Source of the DNA: a virus
Taxonomy: Duplodnaviria > Caudoviricetes
Length of the DNA stretch: 64,000 bases
IMG/VR virus record: IMGVR_UViG_3300049892_000014
Coordinates: 40,913-104,912 of that record
Reading direction: 5' to 3' (one strand)
The position numbers and the translations under genes are program-made. A model generated the notes under the pieces. It saw nothing but the letters and a program-made list of their open reading frames with translations, ran no database searches and had not been told where the DNA came from. Position 1 is the first letter of the stretch, and each line of letters opens with the position of its first letter. Positions 13,858-34,600 of the stretch are shown piece after piece.

Positions 13858-14952
13858 CTACCAGAGTCCAGCTTGCGTCAATACATCCTTAAACCGCATA
13901 GCTTCTGGCGGCGGGAGCGATGTAGACTTAGGCCGATTCTTAACAAGCAATCTAGCACAAGAAGCCGCTATGTCTGCCACGTTCAATTCGGCAGCTTTAG
14001 CCAACACTCTCCAACCATTCAGCCATCGCTCATTGGTGTTGTTACTGATAACGACAGCTGTTACTGAGGTCAGTAAGGCGTAAGCCCTATCTCCACGTTT
14101 AGGAAGAACAAGCTTTTCGGGATGAGCCAATACAACTTCAGGATCAGGCAACTCATCACCCTCTTGAAACTTCTTAAACTCTAGAGCTGGGCCGTCCCCA
14201 ACACATCCAGCTATAAGTTCAAAGACTACATCGTCAGAGTCTTTGAAACCAAACGCTCTAGCAGCAGCCAATAGCCTTGCAGCCATATCCCATGTTCTAT
14301 TACTTGGCCACGCTTTACCACGACTATCCTCATCCTTAGGAATAGCATTACGCAGATTAGGACGAGTGCGAACAAATGAAACTATCGCAGTTCGAGCTAA
14401 TTGGATATTAGCAGGTTTATCCCAATCTTTAGGAAGTTCCTGCTTTTTAGACTGCGGCCATCCAGAGATCATACCCTCAGACCATGAATCCAGAGTATCC
14501 GCAAAATCAAAGTGAACAAACCTATTAGCCAACGGAGGAGATAGCTCCCATCCATTAGCCGCTTGCTCAGGTGGATTAGCAGCAGCTACGATAGTGACAT
14601 GCTTAGGTAGCTGAAGATCACCAACAGCCTTATCTAAAACCACTCTAAGCAATGCACTCTGTACAGCCGGTGGAGCCGTAGAGATTTCATCTAAGAATAA
14701 GACTCCAGGAATATCGGTATTCAATCGGTGCGCCCAAGACGGCGGAGCATAATGTACAACTCCATCCGCACCCTGAATAGGTAGGCCGCTAAAGTCCGAA
14801 GGTTCACGGATAGCGGCAATAACTACCTCACAGTTCCAATCCATACTCTTTGCTACGTCAACAAACCAAGAAGACTTACCAACTCCAGGAGGGCCAGTTA
14901 GTAGCACTGGAACGCCCGCCAACATTGCAATAGTCATAGCTTTACCACTCAT
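13858..14952 (-). CDS. MoxR-like AAA+ ATPase
   Basis: GPPGVGKS, LFLDE, VQSALL, AAANP, LANRF; partner VWA gene downstream. Confidence 0.9.
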   Translation of the reverse strand: MSGKAMTIAMLAGVPVLLTGPPGVGKSSWFVDVAKSMDWNCEVVIAAIREPSDFSGLPIQGADGVVHYAPPSWAHRLNTDIPGVLFLDEISTAPPAVQSALLRVVLDKAVGDLQLPKHVTIVAAANPPEQAANGWELSPPLANRFVHFDFADTLDSWSEGMISGWPQSKKQELPKDWDKPANIQLARTAIVSFVRTRPNLRNAIPKDEDSRGKAWPSNRTWDMAARLLAAARAFGFKDSDDVVFELIAGCVGDGPALEFKKFQEGDELPDPEVVLAHPEKLVLPKRGDRAYALLTSVTAVVISNNTNERWLNGWRVLAKAAELNVADIAASCARLLVKNRPKSTSLPPPEAMRFKDVLTQAGLW

Positions 14953-15232
14953 ATGTTTTCTCCTTAAGTTATTGTTTTTTCTTCGGGTTGCAAATAGGAC
15001 AATCATCTTCCTGGTCTGAGATCCGATCAGGAACTAATGGCCATTGATTTAACTCGCTGACCTGGTTTAAGTCTCCAGTCCATTTTGATGATGTGCTATG
15101 GATAGTTACAGATGGTATCTTATACTGCTCTACCATAGACTTCACATCATTAAGTTTATGGATATGACGGCTAATAATCTGTCCGTCTGGCAGTGTGAAA
15201 TCAACTTCAAAACCTTTCGTCTTACTCATCGT

Positions 15233-16195
15233 TTACTCCTTTGGATATTTATTGATATAATCATAAGAATAATTGACTATATCATGTATTGATACTGCAT
15301 AGATAGCTTTTTCTGCTAACGCTACCCGTTCTTGAAGCTCTGCCACATAAGCGTCTACATGTGAACTATTCTCATGCTTACTGGTAACTGCCGCTATTTT
15401 TGTAGACAAAACTATCTCTCGTAAAGTATTCAGATTACCACCAGCGGCTAGCCAATCAGAGAAGTCTCCCTTTTCTGGAAGGCCTGGCAATTCTACTACC
15501 TTAACTAAATTAGCTAATGCAGCAATGCCATAGAGAATAGTTTTAGCATGTTGTTGTCCAGCCTGGTCATTATCAGGAATAATTACAACATTCTTTCCCT
15601 TAAACCATTGATTGTAATCTTCCTTCCAACTATTAGCTCCCATCGGATTAGTAGTAGCCGGTAGTCCTAACTTCCACATAGCATCAGCATCCTTCTCGCC
15701 TTCAACTATGTAGACTACTGGCCTATCTATCCATTCATTGATACGATATGGATATAGTTTAATATCTCCAATCCCAGGTTGCCAATCAGGATTATGCTCC
15801 CAGTCTGCAATGTTTCGATACAAAGCGTAAGACTTCTTATTGTTATCGTCAATAAACTTCTTGACCAATAAGAATGGATTACCCTTCGGATCTCTATAGA
15901 CGTGAGAATTAACAAAGTTTCCCTTTGTCCTAGCTCTTTCTTCCATAAGCCCCCTTTCTACAAGCCAAGTAATCACATCACTTACCTTGTTTTTATTACT
16001 GATAAAGAAAGCAAAGTCCCAAGCTCCTCCATGCTTACCGCAAGGCCCACACATCCACACATTCTTATCGGGATGTATGGTTAAGCTGCCATGTAGATCG
16101 TCATGATTGGGACAATGAAAAATAATCTGCTGTCCAACCTTTCGGTCAAACTGCAATCCAACAGTCTTAGCAATGGCTGAACAAGTGATATTCAT
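15233..16195 (-). CDS. DNA primase (CHC2 zinc finger + Toprim), no helicase domain
   Basis: CPNHDD..CGPC; VEGEKD; PDNDQAG; KGDFSDW. Confidence 0.85.
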   Translation of the reverse strand: MNITCSAIAKTVGLQFDRKVGQQIIFHCPNHDDLHGSLTIHPDKNVWMCGPCGKHGGAWDFAFFISNKNKVSDVITWLVERGLMEERARTKGNFVNSHVYRDPKGNPFLLVKKFIDDNNKKSYALYRNIADWEHNPDWQPGIGDIKLYPYRINEWIDRPVVYIVEGEKDADAMWKLGLPATTNPMGANSWKEDYNQWFKGKNVVIIPDNDQAGQQHAKTILYGIAALANLVKVVELPGLPEKGDFSDWLAAGGNLNTLREIVLSTKIAAVTSKHENSSHVDAYVAELQERVALAEKAIYAVSIHDIVNYSYDYINKYPKE

Positions 16196-16687
16196 GATAG
16201 CCTATCCATTAAATATTCTAGGTTCATTTGTTTGTATACAATTCTTTTAATTGTATTTGGAGCTAGTTTATACATGATGCCTAGGGTTTCCAAGACTTCA
16301 TTCTCTATATATTGCACATTCTTGCCGTCACAGTCATGCCTCCAATGCGGGCAATCTCTCCAAGATGCTAAGATATTTCTATCTCTATTCATTATGGCTA
16401 TTTTTCTATCTAATCTTTTCATGTTTATCACCTATTAAATCTGATAATTTAATCAAGATGGATAAATCATTTAACTCGTAAATAGATTTTGCTATTGCAA
16501 GCAAATACTCTTTATCGCAATTCAAGCAACAATCGTAACCTAAGTTAATGGTAACGCTATCCGGCCCATGCTTTTCACAATGCGGATAATTATAACCTCT
16601 TTCAGAAATATTGATAGGCGCACCAGTCATCGCCACACCCCTATTCCTACTATAAGTTATCGTAGCTCTCATACATCCTCCTATAGT

Positions 16688-16724
16688 AAACATTCCCAGG
16701 CTATACAGAGTATAGCCAAGGATA
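16688..16724 (-). repeat. early-gene leader hairpin E2
   Basis: CATTCCCAGGCTATAC-AGA-GTATAGCCAAGGAT. Confidence 0.8.
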
Positions 16725-16728
16725 AAAA

Positions 16729-17739
16729 CTAAGTAGTGATGATATGTTTTGGATTGTTTTTAGTTACTTCCAATAAAACATCCAAAGCGGAAGCTTTTAC
16801 ATCATTGCCAGTTCCGAAGATAGCCGACTCCGCCCTAAGCATGTCCTCGGTTAGATTCTTTCTTTTAGCTGTACTACGAACACTCTTTTCATGGTCTACA
16901 TAAGCATTAATAGCTCCAAGCAGAGAATAGGCAGAACCCTTAACTTCTGGCACTACGTTGTATTGATTATTGTCAAACAGCTCAATAATCCGAAGCATGA
17001 CATTATCACGCCTTGTACTCTGATCTCCAGGAAATACCTGATCCAAGGCTTCTGCCATACTCTCCTTAGTCATATCACGTTCCGCTAAGATATTCAACTT
17101 CGCTTGAATATCCTGAGAACTTAATACAACTTGATCCATAAGACTCTTAGCAGCCGCTAACTTACGCTCTGCATTAGTCGTATGTTTAATCCTTAAAACT
17201 TCTCCATTACCATATCGCAATGCAGTCTGTAGAGAAGTTCCACGCTTCACATTGATATGTGTAAGCCTAGCTGTAGTAGCCATAGATCCATCATGGCTAG
17301 AAGCAAATAGGATATGGGCTTTATTCAAATCGTCAGTCCCATTGATAAAGAAGTCACAAGCAGGACAACGTACTAATACCCAAAAGACATTGCCATCTCC
17401 CAAAGCTCCAGCGGACTCATAATGAGATCCTCCCGCTTCTCCTATGAGAGTATCGACAAAGTTAAAGGCGTATTCAAACTGTAATGGACGATATACGCTG
17501 CCAACTGTAGCAAAGAATCTATCGTTATCATCTCTGAATATACCAAAAGCGTTAATCTTTTCACCCGAACCATTCGGATGAACTAACTGACGCTTAGAGA
17601 CTGTGAAAGTTAAATGAGCTAGTTGCCTAGCTTGTTCCCAGGTTACTGGCTTATCTGATACTTGAGACAAACCATCGGCCTGGCCTACTACAAACGACAT
17701 ATACTCGTTGCTGAGTACATCAAAGGCCATGCTTTTCAT
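16729..17739 (-). CDS. DUF932 family protein
   Basis: R.D....F..VG..Y..LQ, ESAGALGDG, SSHDGS, KHT, NAYVDH. Confidence 0.82.
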   Translation of the reverse strand: MKSMAFDVLSNEYMSFVVGQADGLSQVSDKPVTWEQARQLAHLTFTVSKRQLVHPNGSGEKINAFGIFRDDNDRFFATVGSVYRPLQFEYAFNFVDTLIGEAGGSHYESAGALGDGNVFWVLVRCPACDFFINGTDDLNKAHILFASSHDGSMATTARLTHINVKRGTSLQTALRYGNGEVLRIKHTTNAERKLAAAKSLMDQVVLSSQDIQAKLNILAERDMTKESMAEALDQVFPGDQSTRRDNVMLRIIELFDNNQYNVVPEVKGSAYSLLGAINAYVDHEKSVRSTAKRKNLTEDMLRAESAIFGTGNDVKASALDVLLEVTKNNPKHIITT

Positions 17740-18053
17740 AAATCCTCCCCATGAAATGCGGCATCAGCTATCGCTTCTACTTCTTCATCACTAGCGTAGC
17801 CAATGAGAGCTTTATTGATAGGAAAGCCATCATCATCAAAAGCTTTAATAGCTTCCATATCAGTATCTTCGCCATCGTGATCTTTGAGACATTCACGTTT
17901 ATAAGACTCTGTTTCTTCTCTTAGCTGGATCAAAGTCTCATCAATCATGTTTGCCAATATATCCCTGCCTTCCGAAGATGACAAGTCAATCTTGTCTATC
18001 TCTTCACAGACAGTCCAAGCGGCACCATCATTGTCTTCGATGACTAATATCAT
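17736..18053 (-). CDS. highly acidic small protein
   Basis: 31 D/E vs 8 K/R in 105 aa. Confidence 0.65.
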   Translation of the reverse strand: MILVIEDNDGAAWTVCEEIDKIDLSSSEGRDILANMIDETLIQLREETESYKRECLKDHDGEDTDMEAIKAFDDDGFPINKALIGYASDEEVEAIADAAFHGEDL

Positions 18054-18065
18054 ATTCCTCCTTGG

Positions 18066-18725
18066 TTAGTTATTGTAATACTCACTTTCATACCTATCCA
18101 TGTACTGCATATTCCCAGGATCTTCAATAATCAATGCTAACCTTGCGCATCCAAGAGAATCTTTCGGTACACTTGTTGGAGTTGAATCGAAGTCTAGTCC
18201 AAAATGCTCAGAAAATCTTCGAGACTCAGCCATCTTAGTTTCGGCAGCATTTAATTTCCATCGCTTAGACCAATTCTCTCTAGCACGAACAACTTTAAGT
18301 GCTAGAATATCTATATCATCCCTATAATCTTTTAATATAGACTGTAGATGATGATGATATGGCTTCCTATACTTAGATAAGTGAACACGAAATACTTTGT
18401 ATCCACTCAGTAATTCCATATGATCATCAGACCATATGTTATGGTTTCTGATGGCATGAAACGCAGCATAGCTATGCTGTCTAGTAGTTTGAGACTTACT
18501 ATCAATACAGTTTAGAAAGACACACTCATCCTTCCCCTCCATTCTAACGAAAGATGCGACAGGATAATGCGCACCAAAACTATAAAGGGTATCATTTCTA
18601 TAATATAGTGAGTAATCTGTATTTCTAGCATGGTCTTGCTCTTTTTCAGCCCACAACTCTGCAACTCTACGATTGTTATATACTATCTTTGGTCGTTTCT
18701 TTTTCAGAGTAATAGAAATTTCCAT
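18066..18725 (-). CDS. conserved phage hypothetical protein
   Basis: VAELWA, LYSFGAHYPVA, SQTTRQH; coupled to upstream gene. Confidence 0.65.
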   Translation of the reverse strand: MEISITLKKKRPKIVYNNRRVAELWAEKEQDHARNTDYSLYYRNDTLYSFGAHYPVASFVRMEGKDECVFLNCIDSKSQTTRQHSYAAFHAIRNHNIWSDDHMELLSGYKVFRVHLSKYRKPYHHHLQSILKDYRDDIDILALKVVRARENWSKRWKLNAAETKMAESRRFSEHFGLDFDSTPTSVPKDSLGCARLALIIEDPGNMQYMDRYESEYYNN

Positions 18726-19183
18726 TAGTCTAGCTCCTTAAGAGTCCATAGTATATCACTATCAACCCTACGCAGTCCAATCCAATAGCCATGCTTCTCA
18801 TAAGTTACCTTGCGCTCCCAACCAATCTTGGGCAGAACAGGAATATGATAGCCATTAGGATCAGACTGCTGACATAAGATTTTAGCTTCACTCTCAGTAA
18901 TATAATACAATCCATTACTGAGAAGTCTTTTTTCTAAATCAAGCTTCATAGCCACTCCTGCATAGGCTTGCAATTCTCTAGCTTCTTAACAATTGAAGCC
19001 TCATGAGTGTGGCCATCCTGGGTTAGTATTTCAGATATAGTAGGTGATTTCATATCGCAAATTTGCCTAACTATATCCAACATTGTACGATAGTGTGCAT
19101 TGATCTCATTGAGACCTGAGACTTCTCCACACAACGGACAATAATCATCTTGCCACGACATATACATACTCCTTTCACTAATA

Positions 19184-19293
19184 AATCAACCCCAGTCTAC
19201 GCAGGTCGCTTAAGCTAGAATCTTTCCAGAATGATAGGCAGACACTCAGCCTATCAAACTCGTCCTAGCCCTCTCTACACGTAGACAAGAGCA
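19184..19293 (-). repeat. early-gene leader hairpin E3 (compensatory variant)
   Basis: CAGTCTACG...CGTAGACAAG. Confidence 0.65.
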
Positions 19294-19308
19294 AAGCTAT
19301 TAGCGGGA

Positions 19309-19446
19309 TTATTCAGTTGCATACACTAACTGTATGCCACTAACTAAGCACACTATGGATAGCCAAGCTTTAGGGCCAAGAGTATGAGCTAAGAGACCAT
19401 ACCCTATAGCTATTAAAATATATCCAGCAAATCTTATAGACTTCAT
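19309..19446 (-). CDS. small membrane protein (45 aa)
   Basis: MKSIRFAGYILIAIGYGLLAHTLGPKAWLSIVCLVSGIQLVYATE; AGGAGG RBS. Confidence 0.55.
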   Translation of the reverse strand: MKSIRFAGYILIAIGYGLLAHTLGPKAWLSIVCLVSGIQLVYATE

Positions 19447-19459
19447 GGAAGCCTCCTTT

Positions 19460-20071
19460 CTAAAACTCAAACTTATCTTTCCCACCTATAACATTCATCA
19501 TCTTATCCATTTCAAAGCGATACATTTCTTCGTCTGATAATCCATAATTGATAGACCATTTAGTAGCTTCGTTGAGATCTGAGACAGTTTTGAATAAAGT
19601 CTCTAGCTCTTGATAAGTCCAATGTTTCCAATATGACGTAGTAGGCTTATCATCTGAAAATAATTTATTAAACCTATCTCTAATTGACGCCTGGTATTTT
19701 ATGGATAGTAACTCCTTATAACAATTCACATCTAAGGCAGCTATACTACCATAATAATTTACCTGAGATATATTATATTTATTACTCAACAGTATGCGAT
19801 AGATGCTGTCAACTCTATTCATAAGGCAATGGCCATCCCGATAAATTCCTAAATCTTTTCCCTTAACCATATAGCCATCATGGTCAAACATTACAACTAA
19901 ATTAGCCGGTCTATCCATATAAGCCATAACAACATTTCCCATAAACAAGAAATCCCGTATAATTGTGACTTCCCGTTTACCTTTGTACTTAAAAGATGCG
20001 TATTTCTGTCCACGCATCCAGGCCATGGTTACTCCTGCAATATCTGAATAAATAGCTTTTTGCTTAGGCAT
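19460..20071 (-). CDS. hypothetical protein with shared C-terminal helix
   Basis: ends RFEMDKMMNVIGG; AGGAG RBS. Confidence 0.65.
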   Translation of the reverse strand: MPKQKAIYSDIAGVTMAWMRGQKYASFKYKGKREVTIIRDFLFMGNVVMAYMDRPANLVVMFDHDGYMVKGKDLGIYRDGHCLMNRVDSIYRILLSNKYNISQVNYYGSIAALDVNCYKELLSIKYQASIRDRFNKLFSDDKPTTSYWKHWTYQELETLFKTVSDLNEATKWSINYGLSDEEMYRFEMDKMMNVIGGKDKFEF

Positions 20072-20090
20072 CCTATCTCCTTTCTCAAAT

Positions 20091-20146
20091 ACACATTCCC
20101 AGGCTTAACAAGCGTCGTTCCAATTACACCAGTTAAGCCAAGGATA
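20091..20146 (-). repeat. early-gene leader hairpin E4
   Basis: CATTCCCAGGCTTAAC...GTTAAGCCAAGGAT. Confidence 0.8.
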
Positions 20147-20217
20147 CATATTCGATATCCTATTTAGATGTGGAGCCTATCCCTAAACAGCACATAATAG
20201 ATAGACTTGTGGCTTTT

Positions 20218-20394
20218 CTACATATGGGTATCCTCCTTTCTTTTTATAGGAGAAACATAAGTCTTACCATTTCGTAGTTTACACATACCCAAAGCTTGAT
20301 GGCATAGCCTACTATAGTGGCAGCACCAGTTTTTCTTTAGCAAACCCTTATTCCACAAAGATTGACAGTCTCTACATCGCTTTGGGCATTTCAT
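20218..20394 (-). CDS. small Cys-rich protein (58 aa)
   Basis: MKCPKRCRDC...WCCH...LCH...MC; ATGA overlap with the NADAR stop. Confidence 0.5.
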   Translation of the reverse strand: MKCPKRCRDCQSLWNKGLLKKNWCCHYSRLCHQALGMCKLRNGKTYVSPIKRKEDTHM

Positions 20395-20849
20395 TTGTAC
20401 TCCTGTGTAATCTCATCTCTATGCTCCATAAGCAGGATTCCTAGCATATTCTGCCCAGTATGCCCACAGTCTGGGCAATGACATATACCCCAGAAGGTCT
20501 CATGGATGTAGTTACCATACTGTAGATCAACTGGATAAGTTTCCTTGAGCATATATTTTAATAACTTATCCAAGAATTTAACCCTTATAAGCGTTCTCAT
20601 GATCTCTAGTTTATATGTTGACCAATCAGGCCTCATATTGGACAGTATGCCAGCTCTGATAGCGTATGTGGGATACTTTTGCTTTCTTATATACTCACGA
20701 TACTGCCTACCTTCTTCGGTTTCGCTAGACATCTTAGAAGCCTGATAAGCATGTTCCACAGTTTTGTAATAGACTCCATCAAACAATATAGGCTTACCTA
20801 TATAATTATTTGAGAGAAAGCTATTACCTTGTTTGAAGAATCTTATCAT
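20391..20849 (-). CDS. NADAR family hydrolase
   Basis: FLSN, TVEHAYQASK, RPDW, KF, FWG, GQNMLGILLM..R. Confidence 0.9.
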   Translation of the reverse strand: MIRFFKQGNSFLSNNYIGKPILFDGVYYKTVEHAYQASKMSSETEEGRQYREYIRKQKYPTYAIRAGILSNMRPDWSTYKLEIMRTLIRVKFLDKLLKYMLKETYPVDLQYGNYIHETFWGICHCPDCGHTGQNMLGILLMEHRDEITQEYK

Positions 20850-21080
20850 TTTGTCTCCTAACTCCTACAAATAAAAAACCCGATCACCCTTAACATAGGC
20901 TGTTCGGTTATATTTCCAATGTCTATTAGACTCAGTCCATCCAGAATTAACTAGCCCATTCTTTACTCTAATCCATATTCTCCTACACTCCTCAATCGGA
21001 GCATAGTAAGGATAATACACATGAGCAAAGACTACTCTTTGTTTCTTATTCTTCTTCTTTTTCATAGTCTATCCTCCATA

Positions 21081-21120
21081 AAACAATCCCAGGCTTAATC
21101 CGAAGATTAAGCCAAGGTTA
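21081..21120 (-). repeat. early-gene leader hairpin E5
   Basis: CAATCCCAGGCTTAATC-CGAA-GATTAAGCCAAGGTT; UUCG loop on the minus strand. Confidence 0.8.
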
Positions 21121-22214
21121 TTCTATGAGTCTTTACTGAACATTCTTGACTGTATCTTATATCTAGCAGTCCTATCCTGTCTAAATCCAGGATTAAGACT
21201 TCCACAGTTTGCCCTACGAGTCATCTTAGGATTAGACTGATGGATTAGCCTAGTCTTCTTGTTGACCTCTGACTTCCACAGTTGAGCTAGACTCATTGAT
21301 ACTCCTGCTAGATTTTATAGTTAGAATCATCAGCACAGCTCCTAATAGATAAGCTATTGCCTTATCATATTGGGTAGAGTGCAGTAGAGAATCCATACCA
21401 ATAAAGGTACAGTAGATACCTAATATGCTCACAACGATTAGACATACAAGATTAAACAAATGCCATAGCAATGACAACATATAGTCTGCCCTCCATAAGC
21501 AGGATTAAATACAACCTCCACAACATCCCTGTCTAACTTCGGCATTAACTACATCTATTGCCTCAGCCTTTGCTTCTTCTGGAAAGCCTTCAGGCCATTC
21601 ACTAATAAGCCATGGGCCATATTCTACATTCTCTTCCCATTCCTTGGTAAACCATACGCTTCCACCCGAAGACATACAGTATTGTGGAAACGTAAACTCT
21701 TGGCCATCTACCTTGAGAACCAGAATACCAGAGCATAGATTGGGATACTGACCGCTATAAGACACAAACTCAACAGTCATAACTCCTCCTTAGAGATAGT
21801 TAAGTCTAGCCTGGTGCATAACACCATGCCATTTATGAACAGGGACACAACTTGTAATCTTATCCACTATTGCATCAAGACGCTTAGTCCATAGCCTTCG
21901 ATCCGCATAAGACAATGGAATGTAATAATCTGCCCCTATAGGCATACAATGATGAGCGTCTATAGGTGACAGATAAAAAGCTACATTACGCCAAACATAA
22001 TAGATAGAGGCATCTCGAAAGTCATATTCTCTATACTGTCCGTAATGCGTATCATCTGCTGGCTTAATGATCGAAGATATTGGAGGCTTACTAGCCCTAA
22101 GAACGCCACCAGAGTTAAGGATAGCTCTTGCTATACCTAACTCATGTTCATCAAACTGTTTTTCATCAAGTTCAATTTTAGGCATATCATACATAGTGTT
22201 TCTCCTTGGTTAAT

Positions 22215-22346
22215 AAATCAATCTCAGGCTCAATCTAACTGTTCTAGTCTTACCATTATCGCTATTGCGGCATCTGTACAGCTATTCCATTCGGTTGCCT
22301 ACAGTTTTGCCAGACCATACTATCGCATAGTATTGAGCCAGAAACA
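22215..22346 (-). repeat. early-gene leader hairpin E6 (long variable top)
   Basis: CAATCTCAGGCTCAAT...ATTGAGCCAG. Confidence 0.7.
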
Positions 22347-22974
22347 AAGCTATCCCTCTGAGTTTAATACTTCGGGTTCACTCACTTCAAAATCTACAGT
22401 CTTAACTGGAGACGTATAGATTGTTTCACTACCAAAAGGCTTAAATATCATCTTAAAGCCTATGGTAATGTATTCACAAGCTGTGAACACGGGACAAAAC
22501 TCAGGGTGTCCCTGGATATATAGACGATTGCTTACTTCCTCAATCGTATACAGTGTGTTAATGGTTTGTACCTTAATCTTCATCGCATTACTTATCCTTT
22601 CCTACTGTGGTAGCCAAATCAAAGCCGCCATAGTATCCATTGTGCTTGTTGTGGGTTTGACAGACTATTACTCCATTATCTGTGTAGATACGGAGAAACA
22701 TAATCTCATGACGATCATCTTCATAATCATCTGGGACATCGTTGACAGACTCAGTCTTAATACTGACAAGCTTAGCATTGTCATAAGACGAAAGATCATC
22801 ATCGCAAGTCATATATCTATGCTCACAACAAGACTGTCCTCCATCCCATATGCTCAGGTTAGTCTTGTCTGTGAAATGCAGGATAAGAGTATCATTCTCC
22901 ATCTCTACAGACGCAATAGTCTTACCAAAGCAATCTTTTGCATCCTGATCCAAGTACATATCTTCCTCCTATAT

Positions 22975-23017
22975 AAACCATTCCCAGGCTTGTCCACGTG
23001 TAGACAAGCCAAGGATA
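22975..23017 (-). repeat. early-gene leader hairpin E7
   Basis: CATTCCCAGGCTTGTC...GACAAGCCAAGGAT. Confidence 0.8.
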
Positions 23018-23031
23018 ATCTATAAGCAGGA

Positions 23032-23421
23032 CTATTCTTGATAATCATCCAGAGGATACTGCATAGCATACTCTATGCAATCCTTCGACTCTTTCAATCC
23101 CTGAGCCGTGAGCTTGCGATACAGTTGTATCATGTTAATCTTATTGGCCAGAGTATTAGTCCGTGTAGCGTATTCGACAATAGCTCGGCCAATCTTAAGC
23201 AATCCCCCATCAGGACGGACAGGCTCCCAAGCATTGACAAACTCAATCTCATCGTTCTCACCATGTATGCGTTCAGGCTCAAATATATCCCTGCAAGCCT
23301 GTCGCAAACATTCCAATTCGAACCATGTCTTATAGGGAACGTCTACAATCTGTCCATTGTTATCCTTAATACTATAGATATAATACTGATCCATATGCTT
23401 TTGAATAGTAATCTTAGTCAT
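23032..23421 (-). CDS. protein with ribosomal L7/L12 C-terminal-like domain
   Basis: KINMIQLYRKLTAQGLKESKDCIE. Confidence 0.65.
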   Translation of the reverse strand: MTKITIQKHMDQYYIYSIKDNNGQIVDVPYKTWFELECLRQACRDIFEPERIHGENDEIEFVNAWEPVRPDGGLLKIGRAIVEYATRTNTLANKINMIQLYRKLTAQGLKESKDCIEYAMQYPLDDYQE

Positions 23422-23445
23422 AAAACCTCCATGGTTAGTGTAAAC

Positions 23446-23487
23446 AAACAATCCCAGGCTAGTCCACGTGTAGACTAGCCAAGGTTA
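23446..23487 (-). repeat. early-gene leader hairpin E8
   Basis: CAATCCCAGGCTAGTC...GACTAGCCAAGGTT. Confidence 0.8.
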
Positions 23488-23863
23488 AATGTTTACCTTT
23501 CGGAGTAACGCTTGTCCTCATCACACTCATTAGCAGGACTATTGAAAGCCTTGCTATTCTGTAGATGCCGTAGGTAGAATGAATGGTCTGCTATACGCTC
23601 GTCTATGAGAAACATAGGACGATTAGTAGACTCATCTATCCCGATTATAGAACCATCGCTGTTTTCCTTAATTCTCACGATTCTGTCTCCTGGCCACAAC
23701 TAAGGCCTGTGATTCTGGTTTAAGTTTAAGACATGAACTGCACATATGTTCACTGGCCGATATAGCCTGTAAACTATCTACAGTGTGAAGGTTGCCACAG
23801 ATAAGACAATTGTAAGTGTATCCAACTTTATCGGGTTGCATAGTGTATTCTCCTTGGTTAATA

Positions 23864-23936
23864 AAACAATCTCAGGCTTAGGGATGCTTTCGAGGCAAAT
23901 TATAGAGACAAGCCGACTCTACCTAAGCCAAAGACA
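23864..23936 (-). repeat. early-gene leader hairpin E9
   Basis: CAATCTCAGGCTTAGG...CCTAAGCCAA. Confidence 0.75.
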
Positions 23937-24087
23937 ATGCTATTACCAGGACTTACTGGCTATCTTTACTGGATGCTATACTACTTAATAGTTTACCTCC
24001 ACAGAATACGAGCATAGTTAGGACAAAGCTACCAGCTAGACAGGCTATAACAACTTCCATAGAGTAAATCCTTTCGATAAGCAGGAT

Positions 24088-24128
24088 AAAAAAGAAAGGC
24101 TAGAGCGTACAGAGGATACACTCTAGCC
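24088..24128 (-). terminator. intrinsic terminator
   Basis: GGCUAGAGUGUA...UACGCUCUAGCC followed by UUUCUUUUUU on the minus strand. Confidence 0.75.
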
Positions 24129-25050
24129 AGTAAACCTAGACAGCCTTTAGAACTGTCACTGTAGGTTTCACCTAGAGACTCGCTATTACACTATCTCTAG
24201 GTCTATCACCTATTAGGTAGATAAGTTTTGTGACTTAGCAGGCTACTATTTATCCAGATAAAGAATATATAGATTACCGCCTGTTTTGGGTAACGCTAAG
24301 TCCTTCGCCCCGCATATCTTATACTGATTATGACCGCTTATTTACCGCCACCATTGAGTGATACGCTTCACAGTCCACATGTAGACAGGATAGAATACTA
24401 TCCTGGGAAGTGTTCCGCTTTAGTCTTGGCTTCGCCAAGTCCCGATAAGATATACTATTAGCCGCCCCTGATCTGTAGTCTGTCCACATGAGATAACAAC
24501 AATGCCCCCGTTACTCTGTATCCTGCACTCTCTTTTGCTAGAGCCGTACAATCTGCACTCCGCATAAGCAGGACTCTTGGGCTTCCACCGCCAGTATAGA
24601 ACGATAGACTACAACGATTGGTTTAGGTACAACCACTCCTAGTTTGGATAGGATCTTTCGTCATTGGCCGTTGTCTATACAAGCTATCAGGTTGAGTCCT
24701 TCTCAACCATCAACCTAGAGATACTACCTGCATTGCACAGTTTGTCTCTAGGCCACTCGTACCATCAAGTATTACGTCCCCTAAAACCATTGACTGTAAC
24801 ACTAAACGACTTATGATCCCGTTCTAATTGTCTTTGGCGCATTGCCTATCCGCCGACTGCAACCTCATTGGATAGGAGCTAGGTTATCCTTCACCTTAGC
24901 TGTTCTCTATGGCTTGCTCACCAACTTACTGTAATCTGTCTATACTAGCTCAGCCTAAGTGTTAGCTCATTGCCTTGATTAGCAGGACTTTGTGTATTCC
25001 TTCTGTAGTGCTAATCTGCTAGGAGAGCGTATACAAATTGTCTCCTAACT
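24088..25050 (-). ncRNA. candidate large structured ncRNA (~1 kb)
   Basis: no ORF of 60 aa or more in any frame; more than a dozen hairpins and long-range stems; ends in a terminator. Confidence 0.55.
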
Positions 25051-25307
25051 AACTGACTCTAACTATACCCTATACCCTATCCCAATCTATCCTAGTCTAT
25101 AGGCTATCCAGTTTAGGATAGTTTCAAGACTAGGCTAGACTAGGCTAGAGTATATGGCATTTTGCGTTAAAATCGGTTTTAAGCCGTTTTCCCAATGCAA
25201 GGCATAGTAGCATATGCCATGACCGGAGAAAATGCCTTAAAAGCGACTACAGCGCATTTAATGGCCTATTTGCTATCGTATCGGATAGGCTGAAAATCGT
25301 TTTGAGC

Positions 25308-25348
25308 AAAAAAAAAGGCGAGCAAGCTATGGTAGCTTGCCCGCCTTT
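25308..25348 (-). terminator. intrinsic terminator
   Basis: GGCGGGCAAGCUA-CCA-UAGCUUGCUCGCC plus U9. Confidence 0.85.
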
Positions 25349-25365
25349 ATCGTTTCCGGTTTTGC

Positions 25366-25638
25366 TTAGGAAGTAGCTATCTCCGTTTCCGTTTTCCCCT
25401 TAGACAGTTTGTCAGAGTTTACGGAGATAAACTTGCGAATATCGTCGGCAGCGTCCAGAACCCGATTCCAGCCTGTCTCGTATAGCGTGACAGGGAAACG
25501 TCCAAGTCCATATACGCTGACCGCTCCTTTGGTCGATACCTTGAAGGAAAGTTTGCCAGAATTTTTGGCTTTCAAGGCATTGTTTTCGGCTTCAAGTTTT
25601 GCAAGTTTTGCTTCCATTTCGGCTAATGTCATTCCCAT
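25366..25638 (-). CDS. first leftward early protein (coiled coil + small beta domain, possibly nucleic-acid binding)
   Basis: KVSTKGAVSVYGLGRFPVTLY..GW; GGAG RBS; followed by terminator. Confidence 0.7.
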   Translation of the reverse strand: MGMTLAEMEAKLAKLEAENNALKAKNSGKLSFKVSTKGAVSVYGLGRFPVTLYETGWNRVLDAADDIRKFISVNSDKLSKGKTETEIATS

Positions 25639-26072
25639 GGTATTGTTTCTCCAGAGTATGAATCCGCCTAATAGCTTGGAACCATTCCGCCCTGTTAGGC
25701 GGAAACGATTGCAGGTTTTTTGCGCCCTGCACCATTGCGGCAACAAATCGGGCATTTTTTTCACGGCTTGTCAAGGCAAGGTATATATATGATAGATTAC
25801 TGACTATAGGATAATCTGCAAATGATTATAGGCTTGATCTTGAATGATAAGGGAATAGCTATATCCTGCGAACAATTCCACAAAATGTTCGGATAGTCAT
25901 AGGCTAACCCTAATAGAGACAATGATTTACGGCTAGGGTAGGGGTAGGGGTCGAGACCTGCCTACCCTACCCCCTTATATGCTACGACCCCTCCTTTAAT
26001 ACGCACAAAAAATTCCCTTCATATCCGAAAACTAGGTAGATAAAAGAGTTACAGTCTTTTTCACTATATCTC

Positions 26073-26101
26073 TTGACAGACTAATTTGATTATGCTAGTA
26101 T
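26073..26101 (+). promoter_or_regulatory. sigma70-type promoter
   Basis: TTGACA-17-TAGTAT with TG extension. Confidence 0.75.
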
Positions 26102-26119
26102 GTTTTTTGTGGAGGCGCT

Positions 26120-26404
26120 ATGAAGAAGCTGATATGCTGTTTATTGTTACTTATGACGGTCGGATGTACCACTATTACGAATGGTAGAGTGATTGATAAG
26201 AGATTCTTCGCAGCTCATTATCAGGTAACGTATATGCCGAACGGTAAGACGCTGATGCCAATATTAATGCACCACGACGATGAGTGGGATCTTAAGCTTG
26301 TGAAAGGTGACGATAGCGGGTGGGTAGAGGTTTCTGAAAAGGAGTACAATTCGATAAGGGTTGGAGATAATTTTAGTCTACACGTAGACAAGGAGAATAA
26401 ATGA
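26120..26404 (+). CDS. putative lipoprotein
   Basis: MKK + hydrophobic stretch + lipobox-like TVGC. Confidence 0.65.
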   Translation: MKKLICCLLLLMTVGCTTITNGRVIDKRFFAAHYQVTYMPNGKTLMPILMHHDDEWDLKLVKGDDSGWVEVSEKEYNSIRVGDNFSLHVDKENK

Positions 26405-29892: not shown

Positions 29893-29967
29893 TGCGGGGT
29901 AGAGTACTGGTAACTCAGTAGCCTCATAAGCTACCTTATGTCGGTTCAAATCCGGCCCCCGCAACCA
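29893..29967 (+). tRNA. tRNA-Met(CAT), initiator-like body
   Basis: cloverleaf; loop CTCATAA; GTCGGTTCAAATCCGGCCCCCGCAACCA. Confidence 0.92.
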
Positions 29968-29972
29968 AACTT

Positions 29973-30200
29973 ATGGGTGTATATGATATTGAGATGGGAG
30001 TTGGCCCTCTAATGGAGTATATAATATTAGGAGCGCTTGACGGGTCAAAGAGACTAGAGGCTCAGGAGATAATGTCATACGTTCTATATAGCATGTTTCA
30101 TGGCGACCACATTCAGGCTGAAGACTGGTTTAAAACACATAACAGGGCTGACTATGAGAATGTCAGGCTCATGAGATCGTTGAGTAGACATGCCAATTAA
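29973..30200 (+). CDS. hypothetical protein with shared C-terminal helix
   Basis: ends NRADYENVRLMRSLSR. Confidence 0.6.
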   Translation: MGVYDIEMGVGPLMEYIILGALDGSKRLEAQEIMSYVLYSMFHGDHIQAEDWFKTHNRADYENVRLMRSLSRHAN

Positions 30201-30555
30201 ATTACCGACAGTTGGATGGCACGACGTAAACACCAAGGAAATAATCCTTCGTGATAAGGGTGCGGTTACCTACCTGCCGTATGCTGTCTTTAAAAATGTG
30301 AAAGAGGTATGGCCTGATAGCGCAACTTACGCAATAGTAAATCGGTACGGGGAAACGCAGGGCCAACTATGGTTTACCCCTATAGATCTTGGCGATAATG
30401 TAAAGCTTAGCATGGAAACTTTTTGCCAGATGGTCCAGGATCAACAAGGTGGAACCGAATACAGCAGAGACGATTTAATCGGTTATCTGAAAGCCCTCCT
30501 GGAAGCAGATGTGGAGCTTTATAAATTAATGGTGAAAATGGGAAAATGGGATTGA
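30190..30555 (+). CDS. hypothetical protein with shared C-terminal helix
   Basis: ends LEADVELYKLMVKMGK. Confidence 0.65.
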   Translation: MPIKLPTVGWHDVNTKEIILRDKGAVTYLPYAVFKNVKEVWPDSATYAIVNRYGETQGQLWFTPIDLGDNVKLSMETFCQMVQDQQGGTEYSRDDLIGYLKALLEADVELYKLMVKMGKWD

Positions 30556-30580
30556 CAAGCTAATTTGACTGTGCTACTAT
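30552..30580 (+). promoter_or_regulatory. sigma70-type promoter
   Basis: TTGACA-17-TACTAT with TG extension. Confidence 0.75.
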
Positions 30581-30601
30581 TCTTTTTGTGGAGGGAAAGA
30601 T

Positions 30602-30976
30602 ATGTGGCTGATGACGAAATACGGATTTTATTCTATAGTACAAAAACGACCTGGCATATATCATGTAAGGGCTAGGGAGGTGCATGACTTGTATCACCTA
30701 ATAGACTTCGTCCCTCTTCCAGGAAGAGAGGTTAGATTTACCGGTACTAATGATTATCTAGCCAGGCTGATTCTAAACAAGGAAGAGCTTGATAGAGTAA
30801 TGACTTTCCTTAGCAATAACATTGATTACGACAACTTTAAAGATAAGATAGATAAGACTCCAGAGCAGAGACGCAAACCATACCACAAGATCTGGCAAGT
30901 ATTAGCAGATGCTTTGGGAGCGTATGGTATGCCGCCTAAAAAAAATGGGGGTGAGAAAGTTTCGACAGCCGGATAA
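30602..30976 (+). CDS. conserved hypothetical protein
   Basis: MWL.TKYGFYSIV, VRAR, DY..R, IDYDNFK; GGAGG RBS. Confidence 0.7.
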   Translation: MWLMTKYGFYSIVQKRPGIYHVRAREVHDLYHLIDFVPLPGREVRFTGTNDYLARLILNKEELDRVMTFLSNNIDYDNFKDKIDKTPEQRRKPYHKIWQVLADALGAYGMPPKKNGGEKVSTAG

Positions 30977-31029
30977 GTCCCTGCGGGGAACCTGGCTGGA
31001 CCTGGGAGCGTTACCCAGCACCTCCACCA
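30947..31029 (+). ncRNA. minimal tmRNA-like RNA (tRNA-like domain only, no tag ORF)
   Basis: GGGGGTG/CACCTCC acceptor with G3-U70, A73, CCA; stemless D loop ending TTCGA; P2a CAGCCGG/CTGGCTG; GAC linker; T arm. Confidence 0.8.
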
Positions 31030-31045
31030 AACTTAAGGAGATATT

Positions 31046-31663
31046 ATGAAGTATAGTTCATTTCTAAGATTTTTATTAGGTTTAGGACTAGTGATACTTG
31101 CGGTCGGATTATTCGCTACGACTACGGACTATGTAGCTAAATATCTTTATGAAAAGTCTAGACCTATACCTATCTCTAAAACGTCTTCCATGATAGATGA
31201 GGATGTATTAAAGGGTTTCACTCAGGATGGTAATGATATAGTTTATGATCGGCTTGCGGATGAGATAATCGTTGCCTCTAAGAAGTCGGGCGAGAAGTAC
31301 AATATCCCACCAATACTGATACTCTCAGTAATGCAAGCCGAGTCTTCCTTCAACCTGAACGCATTCAGCAAGGAAAAAGCTAAGGGATTGATGCAGATTA
31401 ACACGGCTGTTTGGGGAGATCAGTTGCGTAAGGCTGGTATAATAAGTAAGGACTCAGATATCTATGATCCTCAGAATAATATTGAGGCAGGATGCTTTAT
31501 ACTGCGTCAGTACATTGACGAGACTAAAGACTTTGAGAAGGCGATGAATAAGTATTTAGGCGCTTACTATAAACCATATATTGACAAGATCGGTCGAAAT
31601 GTGGGAGATATATGTATGAAAAATATTTCCAAGAGGATTGACGCAACGTATAAAATAAAATAG
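31046..31663 (+). CDS. lytic transglycosylase (SLT) with N-terminal membrane anchor
   Basis: QAESSFN, AKGLMQI, YDPQNNIEAG; N-terminal hydrophobic helix. Confidence 0.88.
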   Translation: MKYSSFLRFLLGLGLVILAVGLFATTTDYVAKYLYEKSRPIPISKTSSMIDEDVLKGFTQDGNDIVYDRLADEIIVASKKSGEKYNIPPILILSVMQAESSFNLNAFSKEKAKGLMQINTAVWGDQLRKAGIISKDSDIYDPQNNIEAGCFILRQYIDETKDFEKAMNKYLGAYYKPYIDKIGRNVGDICMKNISKRIDATYKIK

Positions 31664-31671
31664 GAGGGGTT

Positions 31672-32052
31672 ATGAAAGTAGCTATCGTAGGATCTCGACG
31701 CAGGATGGATAAAGAGTCAGTCGTAGCTTATGTTAATACCCTACCGGAAGGAACGGTTGTTGTCAGCGGTGGATGTGAAGGAGTGGATACCTGGGCCATA
31801 GATCGGGCTAAAGAACTAGGATTGAAGTGGAAGATCTTCTTTCCTGACTTTAAGGGTGCGAAGACTTATGGCGATTTGTGCAAGCGTTACTATGCACGTA
31901 ACGAAGAAGTAGTGAAATTTTCTGACGTTATAGTTGCCTTCGTTTCCGACGACCGAAAGGGAGGAACCGAGAACACGATCAAATGGGCAAAAAAATACGG
32001 GAAACCAGTTATTATAATGAAGGAAGAAAAAGATGCCGTGGCAAGCAACTAA
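31672..32052 (+). CDS. SLOG/DprA-like Rossmann protein
   Basis: AIVGSR, VSGGCEGVD, YYARN, GGTENTI. Confidence 0.8.
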   Translation: MKVAIVGSRRRMDKESVVAYVNTLPEGTVVVSGGCEGVDTWAIDRAKELGLKWKIFFPDFKGAKTYGDLCKRYYARNEEVVKFSDVIVAFVSDDRKGGTENTIKWAKKYGKPVIIMKEEKDAVASN

Positions 32053-32195
32053 TAGTTATGTTAACCCGTTTCCAAATTGACATATATGCGGACTCCCAGT
32101 TTGGGTTGGAGATAGGGTTGTCAAGCAAAATGGGCCGCACACGCTATGTAGCGAGAATGAATTAAGCGTTACATTGAAACGATTGGAGAGAGAAC

Positions 32196-32546
32196 TTGAA
32201 GAACCTACTATTCAGCCTAACAGCTAAAGACTTTGAGTTCCAAACCTTCTGCACCGGAGGAAATGGTGGGCAGCATCGCAATGCTAAGCAGAACGGTGTT
32301 AGATGTATTCATCCAGATTCAGGAGCTAGAGCCGAGCATAGAGATGGACGTGACCAGAGAAAGAATAAGCAAGAGGCGTTTAGAAAGTGTTGTGAAACGC
32401 CTACTTTTAAGATATGGCACAAGCTTGAAGTTGCTAAAAGGCTCAGGCAACCAATACAAAAAACAGAAGAAGAAATTCAGAGATACGTAAACGAGCAGAT
32501 GCAAGAAGGGAATTTAAAAATTGAAGAACTTGAAATTTCAGTTTGA
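32196..32546 (+). CDS. GGQ release-factor-like peptidyl-tRNA hydrolase domain protein
   Basis: GGNGGQHRN, VRCIH..SG, RDQRKNK..A; domain 3 only. Confidence 0.85.
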   Translation: MKNLLFSLTAKDFEFQTFCTGGNGGQHRNAKQNGVRCIHPDSGARAEHRDGRDQRKNKQEAFRKCCETPTFKIWHKLEVAKRLRQPIQKTEEEIQRYVNEQMQEGNLKIEELEISV

Positions 32547-33120
32547 GGCACCGAAGAAATTCGATCCTTTTATAATTGATGTAGAAACTCAGAAGCTTTC
32601 AAACGAAGTAGAGGGTGGATGGAAGTCTATTGACCAGTTCTTGGTTTCCGTATCTGTATCCTGGGATAAAGCTAACGGCACTAGAGTATGGTATGAAGAA
32701 GATACTATCAGGCTGATTGAGGAAGCGAAGAAGCATTATCCCATTGTTTCTTTTAATGGAGAGGGCTTTGACTTCATAGTCCTGAGCCATTACGGGGATG
32801 TAAATCCCCTTTATCAGTCGAGCGTGGACCTGTTGAAAATTTCTAAAAAAATTTTAGGGTTCCGCATCAAACTGGATTCCTTAGCTCAGGCCACCCTTGG
32901 GTCTGAGAAGACTGCTGATGGATTGCAGGCTGTAGCGTGGTGGAGGTCTGGAGATCCAGAATTAAGGCAGAAGGTAGTTGATTACTGTAAGTCTGACGCA
33001 GAGATTACCAGGGATATATATCAATACGCTATTGATAATGGGCATCTTCATTGCACCGACTTACAGGGTGGGAAGTTTAAGTATAACATTAGCAAATCGG
33101 TCCTTGGTGTAACGGAATAG
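32521..33120 (+). CDS. RNase H-like DEDD 3'-5' exonuclease
   Basis: DVET, SFNGEGFD, LDSLA, YCKSD. Confidence 0.8.
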   Translation: MKNLKFQFEAPKKFDPFIIDVETQKLSNEVEGGWKSIDQFLVSVSVSWDKANGTRVWYEEDTIRLIEEAKKHYPIVSFNGEGFDFIVLSHYGDVNPLYQSSVDLLKISKKILGFRIKLDSLAQATLGSEKTADGLQAVAWWRSGDPELRQKVVDYCKSDAEITRDIYQYAIDNGHLHCTDLQGGKFKYNISKSVLGVTE

Positions 33121-33174
33121 CACAGCAGTCTCCAAAACTGCAAGGTCTAGGTTCAAATCCTAGAGGGCTGGCCA
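33098..33174 (+). tRNA. tRNA-Trp(CCA)
   Basis: cloverleaf, loop CTCCAAA, TTCAAAT T loop, CCA. Confidence 0.9.
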
Positions 33175-33179
33175 AATTC

Positions 33180-33264
33180 GATGACGTAGTTATAATCCTT
33201 CGGGTAGTTAGAACGCCACCATTAGGGGGTGGTAGTGCTGATAAAAACGCAGCCGTCATCATCA
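33180..33264 (+). ncRNA. atypical tRNA-like element (TAG anticodon)
   Basis: perfect GATGACG/CGTCATC acceptor and CCACC/GGTGG anticodon stem; non-canonical D and T loops; ends ATCA. Confidence 0.6.
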
Positions 33265-33334
33265 ATTTTATGCCATAGCGTGATCTACAGGAGGTACATG
33301 CGCACTCCAGCGATACGGGGCGCTATGGTTTTAT

Positions 33335-33412
33335 CGGGGTGTGGCCAAATTGGTTTAAGGCTCTTGATTTGGAATCAAGGAACTGGAGGTTCGAGTCCTC
33401 CCGCCCCGACCA
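33335..33412 (+). tRNA. tRNA-Pro(TGG)
   Basis: cloverleaf, loop TTTGGAA, CCA. Confidence 0.92.
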
Positions 33413-33428
33413 AACTTATGGGGGAGAT

Positions 33429-33938
33429 ATGCTACAAGGGAAGGTTAAATTCGGCGTGGTGGAGTCTGGTATTTATTCTATTTATTCCATCATTAAAGAC
33501 GTAGTATCGCTTCTTGATAACAGGAAGGATAACTATGGTCTTACATCAAACCAAATAACACAGGGAATTATGGGGGCGGGAGCAGAGGGCGCTGTGCATA
33601 AAAGAATGGGTCTATATTTTCCATTTCCCATTAATGTCTTTAAAAGCCAACCTGATTGCATACCGTTAAGTGCAGATATTAGATGGACAGGAAGCCAGGC
33701 GATTATTATTAGACCAGGAGATGCAGATCGGTGGATGATCGGAGTTAGTGGTGGACCGAGAGAGTGGACTATACATGGAGCAATTAATGTTGTTGATGTT
33801 AAGAAGCTCCCTAAAGATAGTCAGCATTTTTGGTATGCGCCTGACAAAAGTAGGCCTGGATGCTGGAATATACCATTTAAGTATTTTAGGGAAATAGGGG
33901 ATGTGAGCTATTTAAATGAAAGAGAATTCCGTCAATGA
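33429..33938 (+). CDS. hypothetical protein, possibly PD-(D/E)xK-like nuclease
   Basis: GAGAEGAV...PD...DIRWT; GGAG RBS. Confidence 0.5.
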   Translation: MLQGKVKFGVVESGIYSIYSIIKDVVSLLDNRKDNYGLTSNQITQGIMGAGAEGAVHKRMGLYFPFPINVFKSQPDCIPLSADIRWTGSQAIIIRPGDADRWMIGVSGGPREWTIHGAINVVDVKKLPKDSQHFWYAPDKSRPGCWNIPFKYFREIGDVSYLNEREFRQ

Positions 33939-34335
33939 GGCGAGTATGAAAAAGAAAAATAAAGAATCCGGCCCAGTCTACTGTATAGAGTATAGCTATC
34001 AAACCGGTGATTCATTCCATACTGAAGATAGGCGTGATACTCTGGAATATGAATGGCACGACTACGACATAGCCAAGGAAGCGCTCACTCGTATCAATGA
34101 GCATTATAAATGGTACGAAGGCAAAGAGAGGTCATACGCTCCAAAGGTGAAGAAGCCAAAGTGGCATAAGATTAATACGGAGTCTATGAAGTGGTTTCAT
34201 GAGGATTCTATGCACAATCTCATTAATCTTAGAATGGATGACGGTCAAGAGGTTCAATTTTGGCCACCATGGTGCGGATACTTTGAATCTTTATATGGTG
34301 CGGAAATCGTACTAAAGCACGATAAGTTTAGATAT

Positions 34336-34415
34336 TGAGGGATAGCTTAGGCCTTGGTAAAAGCGCCGGTCTGTTAAACCGGAAATCGCAGGTTCGACTC
34401 CTGCTCCCTCAGCCA
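34336..34415 (+). tRNA. tRNA-Asn(GTT)
   Basis: cloverleaf, loop CTGTTAA, G73, CCA. Confidence 0.93.
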
Positions 34416-34421
34416 ATTTAC

Positions 34422-34496: not shown

Positions 34497-34504
34497 TTTA
34501 ATAC

Positions 34505-34592: not shown

Positions 34593-34600
34593 AATTTTAT

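Follow-up and report, generated by a model that had tools for sequence, protein, structure and literature searches.

A candidate large structured RNA between two terminators at the head of the leftward gene arm of an uncultured freshwater phage

Bacterial and phage RNAs that exceed 500 nt and have a complex, conserved fold are few as far as is known; those of phages, GOLLD and ROOL, are still without a known function. GOLLD, a large and ornate RNA first seen in lake metagenomes, has more than 800 nt and is encoded by phages and prophages; its location beside tRNA genes or tRNA islands is frequent but not obligatory. ROOL, of about 580 nt, is also found in phages and prophages, and forms an RNA-only cage; GOLLD, ROOL and OLE all assemble into RNA-only multimers. 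Much smaller, at about 70 nt, the put RNAs of HK022 are cis-acting antitermination RNAs located downstream of early promoters. The two ends of GOLLD are unequally conserved: well in the 3' part, poorly in the 5' part (PMC12286853).

The DNA studied here, called the window, is a stretch of 64,000 nucleotides at the right-hand end of an IMG/VR phage record of 104.9 kb, whose completeness is estimated at 82%. On its minus strand, from about position 25049 down to position 24088, lies what is probably an independent gene whose product, a structured non-coding RNA of about 960 nt, would represent a new and rare family. A first-pass annotation of this DNA had already proposed a novel large structured non-coding RNA on the minus strand, ending in a terminator, and the proposal is now supported by conservation, by a strand-specific consensus fold, by compensatory changes, and by the lack of an Rfam match.

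On this last point, the annotation could not assign the region to a known large phage RNA, which agrees with Rfam both at the gathering score and at E-values up to 10. The comparison with Rfam 15 covered the window and the corresponding gene-free gaps of three related phages (L002, L008 and L009, presented below): up to E = 10 it yielded no relevant family, and the families without a match include GOLLD, ROOL, OLE, raiA, HEARO, 6S, group I and II introns, RNase P, tmRNA, riboswitches and ribozymes. The matches that reach the gathering score in the window are tRNAs only; in the region, sub-threshold matches are confined to scattered models of microRNAs or snoRNAs, with E between 0.1 and 10. ARAGORN predicts no tRNA or tmRNA in the region.

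The candidate RNA resembles GOLLD in being phage-encoded, close to 1 kb long and from freshwater, with a conserved 3' part and a variable 5' part. However, even when E-values up to 10 are admitted, neither the window nor any of the relatives matches the GOLLD covariance model, and the candidate RNA is not at a tRNA island: the nearest tRNA gene, at 29893, is 5 kb off in the plus-strand arm, and the tRNA cluster is at 33-35 kb. With ROOL, it has in common a large size and a predicted intricate fold, in a phage RNA without known protein partner; it differs from ROOL by the lack of an Rfam match, a larger size, another habitat, and the lack of a tRNA neighbourhood. The likeness to the put RNAs is one of function only: the candidate RNA, too, would follow a promoter of early type and precede a terminator, with a long operon behind it. 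Its size is over ten times theirs, and its conserved domains are many. The features of an "ornate" large RNA are found here, with two to three sequences per domain: a length above 500 nt, the absence of coding, and conserved unpaired nucleotides among compensated helices.

A further phage RNA near 1 kb in length, from another genomic context, would widen the set that is available for comparison: this one stands at the head of a presumed early arm, framed by its own terminators, and not at a tRNA island. Its value is limited because it is rare, being restricted to a single phage clade, because no host is in culture, and because comparative support is thin.

Genomic setting and boundaries of the unit

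The genes up to about 25.8 kb are read leftward, and encode an SNF2 helicase, a primase, a MoxR-type AAA protein, a VWA/DUF2201 protein and many tiny ORFs. From 26.1 kb, the genes are read rightward, with an AAA ATPase, nine tRNAs, two RNA ligases, a portal and virion proteins. The candidate RNA unit is just inside the leftward arm, beside the divergent switch. The best GenBank phage match of the portal is only 24% identical: this is a phage without cultured relative. Near-identical strains of it are present, as contigs of sequencing runs, in freshwater and freshwater-sediment metagenomes, and these contigs show only five low-depth differences, every one of them in the variable 5' part of the RNA region. 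Nearly all the runs that carry near-identical DNA, kept as contigs, are sequenced from DNA. In a metatranscriptome library, one contig spans positions 24000-24153 and continues past 24000, thus crossing the terminator called T2 below; since it may derive from DNA in that library, it is uninformative on expression.

The neighbouring AAA protein was the query that led to three related metagenomic phages. In L002, L008 and L009, the AAA protein is respectively 64%, 46% and 42% identical to the window's, and each of these phages has a gene-free gap at the head of its leftward arm, of about 1.35 kb, 1.25 kb and 1.8 kb, respectively.

The end of the region in a terminator, as initially proposed, is confirmed by a 13-bp stem (24128-24098) followed by a U tract that reaches 24088. 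This terminator, T2 (24088..24128, minus strand), would give the RNA its 3' end, and it has a counterpart of different sequence in L002. A second minus-strand terminator, T1 (25304..25348), with a 16-bp stem and a U tract, comes directly after the stop codon of a 90-aa gene, and parts this upstream gene from the RNA unit; according to the alignment, read by eye, L002 also has a terminator of different sequence at this place. T1 and T2 are the only long-stemmed intrinsic terminators in a scan of positions 9000-26200, or about 17 kb, and the gene-free stretch extends past 25050 up to T1. Between T1 and the conserved body, the best sigma-70-like match of the minus strand is TTGGGA-18-TAGAGT (25056..25085), a weak candidate promoter that agrees with 8 of the 12 consensus positions, and whose aligned place in L002 reads ATGACT-18-TAGACT. 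Promoter-like sites are no commoner than in shuffles, in the region as well as in the 9000-26200 scan. From the predicted start, near 25049, to T2, the RNA would be about 960 nt long, which fits the limits of 24088 and 25050 that the region had been given.

The reading that we prefer would run as follows: the host RNA polymerase would make the RNA at the start of infection, from the RNA's own weak sigma-70-like promoter; T1 would insulate the unit from the upstream gene, and the RNA would end at its own terminator T2, some readthrough of which may feed the small genes downstream.

There is also the possibility, which we regard as real but doubtful, that the region is a cis-acting leader of the leftward operon. 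It would then control the readthrough of T2 into about 11 kb of small genes, through processive antitermination or a regulated terminator, or it would be a hub for transcript processing. There is indeed no other strong minus-strand terminator in the 15 kb downstream, and promoter-like sites are at chance level there: the downstream genes may thus depend on transcription through T2. The first of these genes starts 28 nt after T2, and a word, UCCYGCUUAU, that is found ahead of many downstream ribosome-binding sites sits at a conserved position inside the RNA. However, a length of about 960 nt, of which about 760 are conserved, far exceeds that of known antitermination RNAs such as HK022 put, and T2 is a canonical strong terminator that is conserved in L002. 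Moreover, the domains of the RNA that are recognizable in L008 and L009 have, by eye, no obvious U-tract terminator after them, and the conserved domains are thus not tied to a terminator.

Two small genes flank the unit. Upstream, the 90-aa protein gene (25366..25638, minus strand), present at the same place in L002, encodes an N-terminal coiled coil and a conserved C-terminal part with the motif KGAVSVYGLGRFPVTLY, which recalls, by eye, the DNA-binding loops of AbrB/SpoVT type. The family of this protein has 2403 matches at E ≤ 1e-8, and 3976 representatives of about 80 aa, from phages and bacteria, at E ≤ 0.001; it has no match in Pfam, NCBIfam or PDB. Downstream, directly after T2, a gene for a 35-aa hydrophobic peptide (23953..24060, minus strand) starts 28 nt beyond the terminator. 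An ORF for a membrane-type peptide of 30-35 aa follows the RNA region in three phages: in the window, in L002 at about 5100-5010, and in L009 at about 2745-2640, the last two also on the minus strand.

Between T1 and the RNA, a poorly conserved spacer (25062..25303) contains two long imperfect palindromes, at 25065-25160 and 25163-25256, and short direct repeats. The palindromes, which lie between T1 and the candidate promoter of the RNA, have arms of 45 and 44 nt, and the direct repeats within 25065-25256 are TAGCCTAGTC and GGGTATAG, twice each, and GGATAG, three times. At the matching place, L008 and L009 have G-run/C-run palindromes with CTATCCCTAG-like words. This palindrome-rich spacer, taken as 25056-25303, is outside the conserved RNA, as well as beyond the limits given in the first-pass annotation, and could be candidate operator or origin-like DNA.

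Conservation in related phages

With nhmmer, positions 24038-25051 of the window align to positions 5090-6048 of L002 with an E-value of 6e-66. The order is the same in the two phages: the 90-aa gene or its homologue is followed by a terminator and by about 200 nt of spacer that is not conserved; after this come the conserved stretch, another terminator and the gene of a small hydrophobic peptide. The part that is conserved in L002 begins at about 25050 and becomes strong from about 24850: identity is about 70% overall, nearly random in the first 150 nt or so, and between 58% and 74% in the longer ungapped stretches that come later. Runs of 10 to 23 identical nucleotides are found, including CCAAGACTAAAGCGGAAC and AGCGTATCACTCAATGGTGGCGG, between phages whose AAA proteins are 64% identical. 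Other contigs of the L002 phage carry an identical RNA.

The region itself is non-coding. The annotation had reported no ORF of 60 aa or more in 24088-25050, and there is none in the larger interval 24061-25365 either, where the longest has 53 aa; the TAA codons that it placed in all three minus frames within 24319-24344 are found at 24321-24344. Coding under another genetic code was also considered, and rejected: among the six frames, none opens when TAG, TGA or TAA is reassigned singly, because all six keep several stops, of at least two kinds. Only 2 of the 20 gaps between the window and L002 are multiples of three, and the mismatches show no three-base periodicity, being evenly spread across the three phases.

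One could still imagine a decayed or very small coding sequence, made of remnants of an early cassette or of micro-ORFs, in an arm full of tiny fast-evolving genes. The region does contain ORFs of 30-53 aa and leader-like words, and a part of the L009 gap holds, by eye, a small uncalled ORF. This reading is nevertheless hardly credible: there is no codon periodicity, the gaps do not keep the frame, and the invariant runs of 18-23 nt are free of wobble variation, in contrast with a nucleotide identity of about 62% in the coding control; furthermore, decay would not keep helices. The uncalled ORF of L009 (2770-2965, minus strand) has about 64 codons and a good ribosome-binding site; since it occupies the 3' third of the gap, the RNA part of this gap is shorter than its 1.8 kb.

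Homologues outside the four phages were sought in several collections. None was found among the INPHARED phages by blastn, in IMG/VR with two invariant blocks and the core pattern, or in GTDB genomes with the core pattern. In IMG/VR, 80 loci of relatives of the AAA protein lack the RNA, both by nhmmer and by the covariance model R1. A two-block pattern retrieved 79 loci from metagenome contigs, all of which are chance matches according to nhmmer, and contigs that encode the neighbours P0271, P0390 and P0391 lack the RNA region. These searches point to what is most likely a rare RNA family, found so far in one clade of uncultured freshwater phages only.

The four-way L-INS-i alignment is unreliable, and the two more distant relatives were reached with covariance models of a core domain (R2) and of a central domain (R3), both trained on the window and L002 only. 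The core model, built on window positions 24330-24222, matches L009 at 3040-3140 (minus strand) with 30 bits, for a rough E-value of 1e-4 in 125 kb; over the three phages that have this domain, 12 of 12 pairs are kept, and 3 of them are changed on both sides. The central model (24772-24655) matches L008 at 2915-3060 (minus strand) with 29.9 bits and a rough E-value of 9e-6. With L008 included, 96% of the cells are paired, and 9 of the 19 pairs have both-sided changes, against 3.0 ± 1.4 in shuffles and 0-2 in slid controls, in an alignment that was fitted to the model and thus leans towards it. Both matches fall inside the corresponding gene-free gap, on the same strand. The core model has no match in L008 and the central model none in L009, and since neither model finds the other relative, the conservation is a mosaic. 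According to these matches, the putative family spans four phage lineages, and the whole body is common to the window and L002 only.

Such a mosaic brings in a second rival: a string of independent small structured RNAs, that is, an operon of non-coding RNAs that would be cut into modules. L008 keeps the central domain only, and L009 the core domain only; the best-supported helices are local, and the global minimum free energy fold is not conserved; and the leader-type word that occurs twice inside the unit could mark cleavage sites. We nevertheless judge such a string to be quite unlikely. One promoter-like site and one terminator bound the unit, and several long-range helices, such as those that pair 24851-24845 with 24652-24646 and 24598-24591 with 24327-24320, are kept between the window and L002 despite quite different sequences.

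Folding and compensatory changes

The stems listed by the first-pass annotation are all present in the sequence: GACTTAGC/GCTAAGTC, CCTAGAGA/TCTCTAGG twice, GGTTGAG/CTCAACC and CCTATCC/GGATAGG, and also GATTAGCA/TGCTAATC, ATATCTTAT/ATAAGATAT and TGTAGTCT/AGACTACA. The folding score that it proposed as a check gives a more mixed outcome: taken as a single sequence, the window region folds moderately better than shuffles, its z-score being -3.0 for the minus strand and -2.2 for the plus strand. For the L002 sequence, the corresponding values are -4.55 and -2.1.

When the two sequences are folded together, RNAalifold yields a minus-strand consensus of -137.5 kcal/mol, against -86.0 ± 6.1 for column shuffles that keep the classes of conserved, variable and gapped columns (z = -8.4). 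On the reverse complement, that is, the plus strand, the consensus is -105.8, with z = -3.2, and four coding controls from the same pair of phages have, by the same statistic, z-scores from +1.95 to -2.8. Because the controls and the plus strand are weaker, the signal is specific: it belongs to this region, and to the minus strand, on which both terminators also lie. The minus-strand consensus is better because many conserved pairs are G-U, and become A-C mismatches on the other strand.

This strand difference bears on a further rival, an element that acts as DNA, for example as an origin of replication, in packaging or as a target of DNA-binding proteins; its hairpins would then matter at the DNA level, if they matter. 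In its favour, the divergent switch is here, and with it the minimum of the cumulative GC skew, the adjoining spacer (25056-25303) is rich in long palindromes and short repeats, and compensatory Watson-Crick changes look alike on both strands. However, the GC skew turns where the genes change direction, and thus has no independent meaning; the consensus fold is much stronger on the minus strand than on the plus strand; a promoter-like site and two terminators of the same strand frame the unit; and there is no AT-rich unwinding stretch or iteron array inside 24088-25050. For the conserved body, an element of this kind is thus very improbable.

Since RNAalifold picks compatible pairs by design, two counts of stems that do not depend on it were carried out. 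The first considers contiguous stems, 7 bp or longer, whose aligned columns pair in both phages and include at least one both-sided change: there are 5 of them, compared to 0.42 ± 0.60 in 200 shuffles, with a maximum of 3. In the second, stems of at least 7 bp are found separately in each sequence, and retained if they fall within 4 nt of each other after mapping: 10 are obtained, compared to 2.3 ± 1.45 in 96 offset controls, with a maximum of 7. Long-range helices with wholly different sequences in the two phages are part of this second set: GGAUAGG/CCUAUCC corresponds to AAAGCCUG/UGGGCUUU, and UAUACUGG/UCAGUAUA to UACUUAGU/AUUAAGUA. A looser test of position-conserved stems is weakly positive (63, against 45 ± 8). 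The existence of conserved helices is supported by these comparisons.

The global fold is a different matter. The pairs of the full-length minimum free energy structure of a single sequence are kept in the other phage at a rate of 37%, against 33% for random pairs, and consequently the global fold is not established, and some of the long-range helices may be wrong. The covariation term of RNAalifold for the window and L002 is no higher than in shuffled alignments; with two full-length and two partial sequences only, covariation statistics are weak.

From 5' to 3' on the minus strand, the predicted layout consists of a variable 5' fifth followed by a conserved body of about 760 nt. The variable 5' domain (24880..25049) forms hairpins, and is 36-46% identical to L002. 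The central domain (24655..24772), which is also present in L008, has a 9-bp helix around a small hairpin whose loop contains GCAA, a second hairpin, and the conserved block CUGAYAGCYU..A..GACAACG. Then comes a hairpin with a leader word at its base (24504..24582): UCCUGCUUAU pairs with GCAGGA, and L002 has UCCCGC/GCGGGA at the same place. The most conserved stretch (24335..24429) contains the invariant blocks CCAAGACUAAAGCGGAAC (24429-24412) and AGCGUAUCACUCAAUGGUGGCGG.AAAUAAGCG (24367-24335). In the core domain (24217..24330), also present in L009, GGCGAAGG is followed by a helix of 8 bp (24302-24295 with 24239-24232); this helix is stacked on another, of 4 bp, and the two enclose a variable hairpin. 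The last part before the terminator is a three-way junction (24134..24218), closed by a helix that pairs 24218-24214 with 24138-24134; inside it, a helix of 24212-24208 with 24166-24162 encloses the hairpin 24202-24170, and a second hairpin is formed by 24157-24139. The four helices of this junction each have one both-sided change between the window and L002, and none is broken. A pairing of the invariant block UGGUGGCGG with the 3' end of a tRNA was considered and rejected, as no tRNA of the phage ends in its complement.

Repeated words and possible roles

The word GCGG, said to recur about 8 times, is found 9 times, against 2.2 ± 1.4 in dinucleotide shuffles, and the longer GGCGG has 5 copies where shuffles have 0.56. 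Judged by eye, L002 seems to have the same enrichment. It is thus possible that a multi-site binder recognizes the RNA through GCGG or GGCGG words. The annotation had rather suggested a protein sponge on account of loops that read AAGGA: this argument fails, because the count of 4 against 1.6 is not above chance (P = 0.08), and because the loops are not conserved, with a single one kept in L002. Having a short word repeated above chance is a trait of sponges of the CsrB/RsmZ type. However, the repeated word here is not GGA, its copies are not in uniform hairpin loops, AAGGA loops are neither enriched nor conserved, and the candidate RNA is much larger, with long invariant blocks.

We return to the preferred reading, a stand-alone gene for a structured RNA. 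In the predicted body, invariant unpaired blocks would alternate with compensated helices, as is typical of RNAs that act by a defined three-dimensional fold. The RNA would then act in trans, as a folded scaffold or as a decoy for a protein or a ribonucleoprotein, possibly through words of the GGCGG type. Such a role is judged the most likely because the body exceeds what the control of a terminator needs, because T1 and T2 isolate the unit, and because GGCGG is present at about 9 times its expectation. A bolder conjecture, and a rather unlikely one, would make it the founding member of a new class of phage RNAs of about 1 kb, each folded into a single compact and intricate particle. It might form an RNA-only multimer, as GOLLD and ROOL do, or be a ribozyme, and within minutes of infection the phage would use it to seize or alter some host machine by means of GGCGG-type words and invariant loops. 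If a discrete compact RNA were proven, it would be a good target for cryo-EM, and an entry to the role of large RNAs early in infection.

Between 19299 and 24987, the minus strand repeats a strand-specific word, (A)AUCCYGCUUAU, with exact copies that end at positions 20437, 21504, 23031, 24086 and 24573. It often stands directly 5' of GGAG and a start codon, and is found ahead of many of the small genes with which the leftward arm begins, in the window as well as in L002, L008 and L009; it is also present inside the RNA, at a conserved place, and the unit contains a leader-type word twice. With at most one mismatch, the window has 33 matches, against 9 ± 3 expected, and in the whole record 11 of the 13 copies are on the minus strand. 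The word may serve as a leader common to these genes, as a site of processing, or as one to which a protein binds. Two other identities of UCCYGCUUAU were tried and dropped: a T7-type promoter, for which the search for a single-subunit RNA polymerase was without match but is uninformative, its control being likewise without match; and a middle promoter similar to the MotA box, as no -10 element was seen, by eye, at a fixed distance.

The tetranucleotide CTAG is dense in 24061-25365, at 13.0 per kb against 4.0 per kb window-wide, or 3.3 times as much, and it is not above the dinucleotide shuffles of the same region (12 against 8.8). In the rightward arm, the nine tRNA genes (29893-35393, plus strand) are those of Met, Trp, Pro, Asn, His, Tyr, Gln and two Leu, and all of them encode their CCA end. 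A protein with an RF-1 domain and two RNA ligases are also found near the tRNAs of the related phages.
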